This document shows, piece by piece, positions 11,580 through 12,315 of a DNA stretch of 64,000 bases. The position numbers were made by a program, and so were the translations under genes. Numbering within the stretch: the stretch's first letter is position 1; each line of letters opens with the position of its first letter. Where the stretch lies: positions 1 to 64,000 of the IMG/VR virus record IMGVR_UViG_3300021431_000012, one strand, 5' to 3'. Under the pieces are notes generated by a model that worked only from the letters and a program-made list of their open reading frames with translations, ran no database searches and was not told the DNA's origin. The stretch comes from a virus (lineage: Duplodnaviria > Caudoviricetes).

Positions 11580-11926
11580 TGTTGTTGTTCTTTTTGTTTT
11601 ATAATTCCAATATCGCGCACAACAACATTGTTCTGCACGATTGATGTTCCTTTTATTTCCGTTCCACAAGAGTTTAGCTTTCCAAACACCGTGGCGCGGC
11701 ATCCAGAGTGCGCACCGACCTTCCGCAAGTAAGACACCTGCTTTTGCCCATACACAAAGATTCTAACATAAGTCACTGGCTTTTGCCCTTCGGTTTCGCT
11801 TTGCGTTTCCCTAAAATAAGATTGAATGCACAACGTGAATGTGGCATAGTTCTGCCCATTGCTTGCCGTGCCGTACTTGAAGTCACTACCGATAGTTCCT
11901 TCAAGGTGAACAAAGTTTTTATCCAT
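11576..11926 (-). CDS. ssb: Single-stranded DNA-binding protein (no acidic tail)
   Basis: NFVHLEGTIGSD...ATFTL...TYVRIFVYG...GCRATVFGKL OB-fold pattern; next to the exonuclease and RecT genes. Confidence 0.8.
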   Translation of the reverse strand: MDKNFVHLEGTIGSDFKYGTASNGQNYATFTLCIQSYFRETQSETEGQKPVTYVRIFVYGQKQVSYLRKVGAHSGCRATVFGKLNSCGTEIKGTSIVQNNVVVRDIGIIKQKEQQQ

Positions 11927-11950
11927 TGTTGTCTTGAAATAAAGTTGTTG

Positions 11951-12200
11951 TGGAGCGAGGGGGAATCGAACCCGTTGTAAGAATCACTATAAAAAACAAA
12001 TTATATGCTACACTCTATCATATACAATATGAGTAAACTAATATAATATTATAACCACTAAAATAAAAAATTATGTTTAACTAAAAAATCTGAAATTTGA
12101 GATGTATTTGAATAAATTCGGATATACAACAAGCCATTTCGCAACGGCCACACATTCTCACTTGAATGTGGCGTGTTCCATAACACGCAAACCTCGCCCC
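11951..12200 (-). ncRNA. Candidate tRNA-Ala/tmRNA-like structured RNA (about 250 nt)
   Basis: 5' GGGGCGA pairs with 3' TCGCTCC-A (G3-U70, A73); GGGTTCGATTCCC T-loop; three abutting 7-bp hairpins; promoter about 80 nt upstream. Confidence 0.5.
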
Positions 12201-12281
12201 GTGTAAAAGGAAAGCTATTTTCACAAACCGCCTCCCCGCGTATTATTCTAACTTAAAACAATAAAAAGTTTTAATCAACCA

Positions 12282-12315
12282 CAAAGATACGAAAAATCGT
12301 GATTAGATTTGCAAT
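12282..12315 (-). promoter_or_regulatory. Bacteroidota-type promoter driving the ncRNA candidate and ssb-exo-recT
   Basis: TATCTTTG at 12289-12282; ATTG about 22 nt upstream. Confidence 0.65.

Follow-up and report, generated by a model that had tools for sequence, protein, structure and literature searches.

When a phage operon is preceded by a gap of 390 nucleotides (nt) that encodes no protein, a simple question has to be asked: is there an RNA in the gap and, if so, what kind of RNA is it? The gap in question lies in the virus record IMGVR_UViG_3300021431_000012 (Duplodnaviria; Caudoviricetes), a complete genome of 75.7 kb with direct terminal repeats, the first 64 kb of which (positions 1 to 64,000) make up the stretch analysed here, hereafter the window. 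The gap forms the leader of the ssb-exo-recT operon on the minus strand, and a first-pass annotation placed in it an RNA resembling tRNA-Ala or transfer-messenger RNA (tmRNA). Here we argue that the leader encodes a real, structure-conserved RNA that is under selection and is missed by standard annotation (ARAGORN, Rfam). The element, 253 nt long (12200-11948, minus strand), is a non-decoding tRNA mimic: it has the rare 9/3 design of allo-tRNAs, which is tRNA-Sec-like, in an expanded and leader-borne form. Of the earlier interpretation, a tRNA-mimicking RNA with an alanine-type acceptor end and no tag has stood, and the tmRNA-like part has fallen.

Fold and variation of the leader RNA

A renewed reading of the sequence has upheld all coordinates of the first-pass annotation, namely those of the promoter box, the acceptor strands, the T arm and the three hairpins. 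The acceptor stem, P1, pairs GGGGCGAGG (12200-12192; all window positions below refer to the minus strand) with CCUCGCUCC (11960-11952), as judged from the fold, from the pairing in variants and from RNAalifold. It includes the match that had been noticed first, of GGGGCGA (12200-12194) with TCGCTCC (11958-11952), G3-U70 among its pairs, and refines it: G8 and G9 pair with the two C's located 3' of the T stem, so that the acceptor helix comprises 9 base pairs (bp) and, together with the T stem, 9 + 3 = 12 bp. As read from the sequence, the acceptor end is of the alanine type (G1-C72, G2-C71, G3-U70, G4-C69, A73), the discriminator being the A at 11951; it is followed by CAA (11951-11948 in all), so that, as reported at the outset, CCA is not encoded. 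The T arm, GGG-UUCGAUU-CCC (11973-11961), agrees at every position with the T-arm consensus of the Rfam tmRNA model.

Between the two acceptor strands come the three abutting hairpins described earlier, each with a 7-bp stem and each backed by compensatory changes. The first, hp1 (12188-12171), has an AUGG tetraloop and is the analogue of the D arm; the second, hp2 (12170-12151), is the analogue of the anticodon arm, with a 6-nt loop, AAGUGA, and no anticodon loop; the third, hp3 (12149-12132), which corresponds to a long variable (V) arm, is closed by GCGA, a GNRA loop. The AT-rich stretch that follows was also correctly seen, its length now being about 145 nt, and it proves to be closed by a sixth helix, P2, in which GUUGUA (12130-12125) pairs with UACAAC (11979-11974), as found from variant pairing and by RNAalifold. 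The interior of P2 (12124-11980) is AU-rich (about 20% G+C), variable and non-coding. The 3' strand of P2 abuts the T stem; its covariation with 12130-12125 excludes it from that stem, which is thereby fixed at the 3 bp originally noted.

How far is this structure beyond chance? The complementarity of the 5' and 3' parts is, taken alone, weak and not beyond it, because about 45 places in this genome satisfy a loose scan for a T hairpin accompanied by a complement of 7 nt; for a complement of 9 nt within 400 nt, the expected number is, by our own estimate, about 0.06. The element is lifted above chance because three kinds of evidence agree. First, its minimum free energy fold holds all six helices with z = -3.5, and none of 200 shuffled sequences folds as well. 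Moreover, when P2 is removed in silico, the remaining 96 nt fold as a cloverleaf with a 9-bp acceptor stem, a 7-bp D stem (AUGG), a 7-bp anticodon-like stem, a 7-bp V arm (GCGA) and a 3-bp T stem. Second, variants of the leader keep the pairs. These variants are L125, carried by one metagenome contig, and those of ten Logan/JGI contigs, all of these contigs encoding the same SSB protein as the window; with the window, they yield nine distinct versions, in which 99.1% of the cells of the six-helix structure are paired, as compared to 41-60% when the partners are slid, and six pairs show double compensatory changes, as compared to 0-1 in the slid controls. Third, RNAalifold independently finds the same six helices. 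Conservation and covariation of the 5'/3' pairing in related ssb leaders had been put forward as a check on the initial proposal; P1 shows the former and P2 the latter.

The changes are spread over the helices as follows. In P1, a C5-to-U replacement in L148 keeps the pair as U-G, and L144 loses the ninth pair. In L125, hp1 shows one double compensatory change (U-A to C-G) and one change of G-C to G-U, and P2 shows two double compensatory changes (G-C to A-U and U-A to C-G); hp2 has two such changes, along with U-A to U-G in two variants, and hp3 has one, along with changes of G-U to A-U. The hp2 of L125 has 6 bp and an 8-nt loop, and the hp2 loop is never 7 nt long and lacks U33; the T loop of L125 reads UUCGAAU. 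A terminator-like call at hp3 is not kept in L125.

The AU-rich interior behaves differently from the stems. Close variants differ in it by indels of 2, 3 and 4 nt, and the segment from hp3 to the T arm, P2 included, is 148-158 nt long in the four variants in which it was measured. Between the window type and the L125 type the interior has no blastn similarity and is unalignable; no peptide is common to the two in any frame, the RNAalifold consensus contains no conserved helix or pseudoknot within it, and no second copy that would mark the arm as a repeat or a mobile insert was present in any sequence examined. L125 is itself a mosaic with a boundary at about 11926, the start of ssb: from there onward it is 95-98% identical to the window, and the element and the upstream genes are 46-86% identical. 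The sharpness of this boundary points to recombination, which would have taken place close to the 3' end of the tRNA-like element or directly at it.

Could the element be a relic, that is, a decaying, interrupted tRNA pseudogene or an attP remnant of the 3' end of a host tRNA or ssrA gene? One relative does have a real suppressor tRNA at this site (see below), and a serine recombinase gene is found 4 kb away. However, the window and L125 differ by 16 stem substitutions, of which 12 form paired compensations and 2 more are compatible with wobble pairing, and the divergence, at about 75% identity, is like that of the neighbouring genes, which indicates that the structure is under selection. An attP remnant with chance 5' complementarity, the outcome that had been named as fatal to the first proposal, is refuted by the covariation of P2, which links the 5' and 3' halves. 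Nor was any rumen-type host genome with the 3' half recovered by the scan described below, its 15 exact matches being tRNA-Ala or 8/4 tRNA-likes from unrelated phyla. A relic is, in our judgement, extremely improbable.

Similarly, it has to be asked whether selection acts on the DNA, with transcription passing through an AT-rich core that is an unwinding region or origin, the GC-rich hairpins on its flanks being incidental. The composition of the core, flanked by GC-richer sequence, the adjacent promoter and the vicinity of recombination genes are what such a region might be expected to show. Against this, the compensatory changes include G-U pairs, which are workable on one strand only; there is no inflection of the cumulative GC skew at this place; an O-like initiator, a DnaB-like helicase and a sliding clamp are encoded elsewhere in the genome; and the AT-rich part contains neither repeats nor iterons. 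We consider a DNA-level element very improbable.

Relation to tmRNA, tRNA and the allo-tRNAs

If the leader holds an RNA, which class does it belong to? The first-pass annotation proposed, as one option, a reduced tmRNA-like RNA that would be alanylated and bound by SmpB, and would either rescue ribosomes without a tag or act as a decoy of trans-translation. There are reasons for this view: the element shares with the tRNA-like domain of tmRNA the G3-U70 pair, A73 and a canonical T loop; its size, about 250 nt, is similar; the 3' strand of P2 leaves the junction beside the T arm in the same way as P2a of tmRNA; and its acceptor/T branch is letter-identical to that of short bacterial tRNA-likes to which the Rfam tmRNA model gives 19-22 bits. 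However, the checks by ARAGORN -m and by Rfam covariance models that had been suggested for this reading called no gene. ARAGORN -m returned nothing even for the shortened form, and the tmRNA model (RF00023) matches only the 13-nt T arm (model positions 349-361), with 10.9 bits as compared to a gathering score of 47. There is no conserved reading frame and no resume/stop pair in the element, the indels breaking every frame, in keeping with the earlier remark that no tag frame was visible. None of the pseudoknots PK1-PK4 is conserved in the consensus fold; instead, three plain hairpins stand in cloverleaf order, so that D, anticodon-like and V arms are found where, in tmRNA, an unpaired D-loop analogue follows the acceptor strand. 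Furthermore, the T stem has only 3 bp and CCA is not encoded, the same site in related phages is held by ordinary tRNA-like genes, and G3-U70 is not conserved in those relatives. An identity as tmRNA is therefore rejected, and a reduced tmRNA-like rescue RNA appears as improbable as a DNA-level element.

A canonical tRNA fares no better. The model RF00005 has no match in the window at the gathering score or at E values up to 10, and every Rfam model misses the element, searches at E up to 10 returning the T loop only. The tRNA and tmRNA modes of ARAGORN, relaxed and with introns allowed, made no call in the window, in the whole genome or in P2-deleted constructs, the exception being one L125 construct, for which a spurious intron-containing 'tRNA-Gly' was reported. 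Both a canonical tRNA and a decoding allo-tRNA are ruled out by the 9/3 geometry, by an hp2 loop of 6 or 8 nt and by the lack of U33. As for copies elsewhere, blastn against the INPHARED phages gave no match to the element; IMG/VR contained no close copy, and exact and degenerate pattern scans of IMG/VR with the 3' half, the 5' half and the hp1-hp3 loops returned nothing or chance matches in coding regions.

The closest design known to us from the literature is that of the allo-tRNAs. Like the 9/3 members of this class, the element splits a 12-bp acceptor branch into a P1 of 9 bp and a T stem of 3 bp, and like them it combines a long D stem capped by a tetraloop, a lengthened anticodon stem and a long variable arm, each of which is backed here by compensations; G3:U70 with A73 is also common to the element and to the G3:U70 types of allo-tRNA. 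The long D stem with a tetraloop is the D arm of tRNA-Sec and the allo-tRNAs (PMC5389517). In E. coli, allo-tRNAs of the 8/4 and 9/3 types fold, undergo processing and serve in translation, with Ala being inserted by the G3:U70 types (Mukai et al. 2017, NAR; PMC5389517); others, which are translation-inactive, have five-stem junctions, lie near toxin-antitoxin loci and are thought to be regulatory (PMC5389517; PMC7609411). The 8/4 forms have been reported from phages and from the rumen (PMC5389517; PMC7609411). The element differs from all of these in that it has neither a 7-nt anticodon loop nor an anticodon; in that a sixth helix with about 145 nt of AU-rich RNA brings its length to 253 nt, as compared to about 90 nt; and in that it forms part of an mRNA leader, with a start codon 24 nt downstream, and has no encoded CCA.

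The acceptor end leads to the same group of RNAs by another route. A scan of one genome per prokaryotic species with the 22-nt string of the T arm and acceptor strand finds 15 places. Three are tRNA-Ala genes or fragments, and most of the others are RNAs of 68-72 nt that start with GGGGCG(A/G)G and are not called by ARAGORN. These fold as 8/4 tRNA-likes; most of them have a D stem of 4-6 bp closed by a tetraloop, and several combine an anticodon stem of 6 bp with a loop of 8 nt. The window's acceptor/T branch (GGGGCGAG ... GGTTCGATTCCCCCTCGCTCCA) recurs letter for letter in 8/4 tRNA-likes from Patescibacteria, Peregrinibacteria, Dehalococcoidia and one Prolixibacteraceae genome. These genomes belong to unrelated phyla and none of them is a plausible host. 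The 8/4 tRNA-likes end in CTCGCTCCA(CCA), have G3-U70 and do not reach the thresholds of the Rfam models for tmRNA and tRNA-Sec; their carriers are L131, L132, L135 and L139 (Patescibacteria and one 'Gammaproteobacteria' metagenome-assembled genome), L128/L133 and L138 (Peregrinibacteria/Peribacteria), L141 (Dehalococcoidia) and L142:5784-5855 (Prolixibacteraceae). The Patescibacteria copies are accompanied, about 100 nt upstream, by a promoter-driven, terminator-ended piece that is antisense-complementary to their D/anticodon region.

Occupants of the ssb site and a possible role in mRNA maturation

What would a tRNA mimic be doing in front of ssb? The family of roughly 80-kb phages to which this genome belongs was defined by the terminase, and ssb was located in 21 of its 23 longer records. 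In five of these relatives (G016, G010, G023, G005 and G017) a tRNA-shaped gene lies directly upstream of ssb. In G016 (L113 / L206; 54709-54780, minus strand), it is a tRNA with the anticodon CUA, that is, an amber suppressor, with C at position 37. No genome-wide stop-codon reassignment was detected that would go with it, the ORF coverage in five genomes being 80-89% under the standard code with no excess of TAG, and in-frame stops that could have been taken as recoding, and thus as a job for the suppressor, were shadow-frame artefacts. G010 and G023 have tRNA-likes of 74-75 nt with 10-nt anticodon loops, which score 34.4-37.5 bits on the Rfam tRNA model (cut-off 29), as compared to 42-70 bits for the real tRNAs of the family; G005 has a cloverleaf tRNA-like with a 6-nt loop; and in G017 (L124; 9881-9922, minus strand) the occupant is reduced to a 42-nt acceptor/T minihelix without D or anticodon arms. 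The acceptor stems of these RNAs (GGUCUUG, GGACGGG, GGCGCAA, GGUCAAA) are all paired, save for one A-A mismatch in G017. None of the five has G3-U70, and none has the AU-rich arm. In G010, the AUG of ssb starts 2 nt after the discriminator, so that translation seems to require that the tRNA-like be removed or unfolded.

The acceptor/T half is the sole part common to all versions at the ssb site, the 42-nt form included, and it is the part of a tRNA that is read by RNase P, RNase Z and the CCA-adding enzyme. The real tRNA genes of the family (L178-L207; genome 73358-73429) mostly have no encoded CCA and show an A/CAA or A/CTA context like that of the element, as does this phage's own tRNA-Gln. 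Because the acceptor/T half with A73 and a tRNA-type trailer recurs in all versions, a role in processing is the reading best supported. We put at about one in two the probability that the tRNA mimic shares a transcript with ssb and that RNase P, RNase Z and the addition of CCA mature it, freeing an mRNA and a stable RNA. The first-pass annotation had mentioned an RNase P/Z signal as an alternative to its tmRNA-like RNA; of the two, it fits the comparative data better, in view of the 72-75-nt tRNA or tRNA-like gene, or the minihelix, in front of ssb in the relatives and of the CCA-less tRNAs of the family.

The steps, as suggested by sequence, fold, placement and relatives, would be the following. 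The promoter (12314-12282) would drive a transcript of the ssb-exo-recT operon in which the element comes first. The tRNA-maturation enzymes of the host would then recognize the elbow and the 12-bp acceptor/T stack: RNase P would cut before G1 (12200), and an RNase Z-type enzyme would cut after A73 (11951), with CCA being added thereafter. The ssb mRNA would be released with a 24-nt A/C-rich leader and, alongside it, a stable tRNA-like RNA of about 250 nt. This RNA could be chargeable with alanine by alanyl-tRNA synthetase (AlaRS); having no anticodon, it is unable to read a codon. An action in trans would likewise be a prediction from these data.

Such an arrangement has likely counterparts. 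Plant mitochondrial t-elements, the mascRNA of MALAT1 and tRNA-mRNA co-transcripts, as in the E. coli tufB operon, are reportedly examples of tRNA-like processing signals. In these, as here, a tRNA-shaped acceptor/T module lies in a longer transcript beside an mRNA, and cuts by RNase P and RNase Z are to be expected; the leader transcript indeed contains an acceptor/T minihelix, a T loop and a discriminator beside a coding region. The element differs from them in its position at the very start of an operon rather than between cistrons, in a far larger body and in being known from sequence. For non-decoding tRNA-like RNAs, too, there are precedents, such as the stable RNAs C and D of phage T4 and phage RNAs processed by RNase P. 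In B. cereus, the pseudo-tRNA tRNA-Other is a non-decoding tRNA-like RNA (PMC3399842). RNAs of this kind are tRNA-derived, processed and sometimes charged, and do not decode; the element differs in architecture (9/3 with an extra arm) and in genomic setting.

Several observations weigh against maturation by the tRNA-processing enzymes, or against the comparative data on which it draws. The base before G1 is a C, and bacterial RNase P is usually said to prefer a U there. All six double compensatory changes come from one divergent sequence, L125, and P1 and the T stem are nearly invariant and show no covariation, being backed by conservation instead. Different phages may have acquired their occupants of the site independently, in which case these would not form one lineage. 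Most importantly, hp1, hp2, hp3 and P2 are each kept by compensation, whereas a pure processing signal needs only the minihelix, as seen in G017; selection on these parts suggests either a separate task for the RNA once it is released or an action of the leader in cis. Maturation does not account for the AU-rich arm.

Action in cis would mean that the leader is not cut: a tRNA-shaped 5' block would stabilize the mRNA or gate the translation of ssb, and the single-stranded AU-rich arm could be where ribosomal protein S1 or, in autoregulation, SSB binds. The leader of T4 gene 32 is reportedly a precedent for the autoregulation of an SSB. The place of the element, 24 nt from the ssb AUG and inside the only transcription unit, would suit such a block, as would the GNRA-capped hairpins typical of structured leaders and the arm of about 145 nt of unstructured AU-rich RNA, in which length and composition are kept and sequence is not. 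However, the equally placed tRNA-likes of the relatives have no AU-rich arm; a stabilizer does not need a tRNA shape complete with a canonical T loop, A73 and a CCA-less trailer of the tRNA type; and in G010, where the AUG abuts the acceptor stem, initiation would be blocked unless the element is cut or melted. An uncleaved leader is, on balance, unlikely.

The other possibility, that of a job in trans, can be extended to the view that a trans-acting tRNA decoy or aminoacyl donor is the main product and the formation of the mRNA 5' end a by-product. The RNA might soak up defence nucleases that target tRNAs, or nucleotidyltransferase toxins, which act on acceptor ends and elbows; it might sequester AlaRS, EF-Tu or the CCA-adding enzyme; or it might supply Ala to a non-ribosomal, aminoacyl-tRNA-dependent transferase. 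The whole L-shaped body, and not just the minihelix, is kept by compensation, and it combines a complete set of alanine identity elements with a non-decoding loop; tRNA-Other of B. cereus would be a further case (PMC3399842). Furthermore, this genome, alone among the 24 family records, encodes a tandem-GNAT, Fem-like protein. Yet this view names no target, only one lineage links the RNA to the Fem-like gene, and G3-U70 is absent from the other leader tRNA-likes; it also overlaps with maturation by the tRNA-processing enzymes rather than excluding it. We regard a decoy or donor as the main product as somewhat unlikely.

The Fem-like protein deserves a closer look. It is encoded in a cassette downstream of tRNA-Gln(UUG), beyond the window (L208:6610-9350, corresponding to genome positions 70610-73350, minus strand), which consists of a 350-amino-acid tandem-GNAT protein, a pyridoxal phosphate (PLP)-dependent enzyme (PALP) and an N6/N4 DNA-methylase-like protein. 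Sequence searches of Pfam, PHROGs and the PDB with the tandem-GNAT protein came back blank. Its structural model (22 homologues; predicted local distance difference test score, pLDDT, 93) best matches Weissella FemX, MprF and A-PGS/L-PGS, with E = 2e-8 and a template modelling (TM) score of about 0.5, and an Atlas feature search points in the same direction. FemX, MprF and A-PGS/L-PGS are aminoacyl-tRNA-dependent transferases, and the FemX and MprF/A-PGS matches depend on Ala-tRNA. The gene is present in none of the 23 relatives, which makes this genome unusual in combining a tRNA mimic of the alanine type with a Fem-like enzyme, so that its co-occurrence with the element rests on one lineage. 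The same three-gene module recurs beside replication genes in other phage contigs (L209-L213), and on L209, the one contig scanned, neither a tRNA nor a tRNA-like was detected, which counts against a dedicated donor. The cassette is a candidate amino-acid-based DNA modification pathway. Conceivably, the RNA is a dedicated non-ribosomal alanyl carrier that feeds the Fem/MprF-like transferase (genome 72.3-73.3 kb), or a decoy that absorbs a defence factor acting on acceptor ends, the AU-rich arm being a protein-binding or anti-EF-Tu/anti-ribosome appendage; we hold this to be quite unlikely, and the link of the tRNA mimic to the Fem-like enzyme is a low-probability idea.

Leader tRNA-likes are not confined to ssb. 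In G006 (L205:29208-29277, minus strand), a non-decoding cloverleaf with a 6-nt anticodon loop precedes the gene of a small basic protein by 19 nt, and in G007 (L199; 75512-75622, plus strand), a non-decoding leader RNA resembling tRNA-Ser has an anticodon arm with a 13-bp stem and a 19-nt AU-rich loop. In G010 (L109:1950-2160, minus strand) and G016 (L113:1940-2140, minus strand), about 200 nt of further conserved non-coding leader, which may be a larger structured RNA, lie upstream of the tRNA-like; the conserved blocks are TCCCCAGC, GCATGGCATTG, GATAAT, TGACAC and GCAAGGGT, and there is no Rfam match. As to the tRNA genes proper, most of those in the family are followed by a C and an A/T-rich trailer, and tRNA-Gln(UUG) is the most widely kept.

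Operon, promoter and implications

The order of genes on the minus strand is: small ORFs, the non-coding gap, ssb, two small ORFs, a gene for a RecE-like exonuclease and recT, with ssb being the first gene of the operon. These assignments come from Pfam for SSB (35.2 bits) and RecT (121.5 bits), from PHROG for the RecE-like exonuclease and from gene calls on sister contigs. On the ssb side (11950-11576), a 24-nt A/C-rich spacer (11950-11927) leads to the ssb ATG at 11926. Upstream of the element, a Bacteroidota-type promoter is predicted at 12314-12282, with a -33-like TTGC (12314-12311), a 21-nt spacer and the -7 box TATCTTTG (12289-12282). This box is the sole occurrence of TAnnTTTG on the minus strand between the upstream gene and ssb and is kept in all variants of the element, and the promoters of this genome and of its relatives match the Bacteroidota pattern TTTG...TAnnTTTG; a motif scan found no internal promoter within the element, its AU-rich arm included.

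Between the promoter and the element, folding places a leader hairpin (12237-12208) with an 8-bp outer stem, a 1x1 internal loop, an inner GUUU/AAAU stem and a GUGA (GNRA) tetraloop. Its core, GUUUGYGAAAAU, occurs once in this genome and is found beside the tRNA-likes of L125, G005 (L104) and G017 (L124, two copies), where the outer stems differ and are still complementary. A GNRA-capped hairpin stands 5' of the tRNA-like in both phage sub-groups, the GUUUGYGAAAAU core being kept in the sub-group of the window; wherever this core is seen, it adjoins a leader tRNA-like and has covarying outer stems. The hairpin could be a 5' stabilizer, or a binding site for a protein or an antiterminator.

Taken together, these data bring the 9/3 allo-tRNA-like RNAs, a small and poorly understood class, into phages and into the setting of an mRNA leader, and add to the class a non-decoding form that has a large additional arm. 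They also reveal a recurring design in a family of roughly 80-kb phages, in which a promoter is followed by a GNRA-capped hairpin, a tRNA or its mimic and the gene that opens an early operon. Should the RNA be excised and charged, it would represent a natural, virus-made look-alike of an aminoacyl-tRNA with a non-decoding purpose, and would offer a handle on why inactive allo-tRNAs exist. If it is only a signal for processing or stability, it would mean that phages recycle tRNA genes as makers of mRNA 5' ends, in hosts without Shine-Dalgarno-led initiation.

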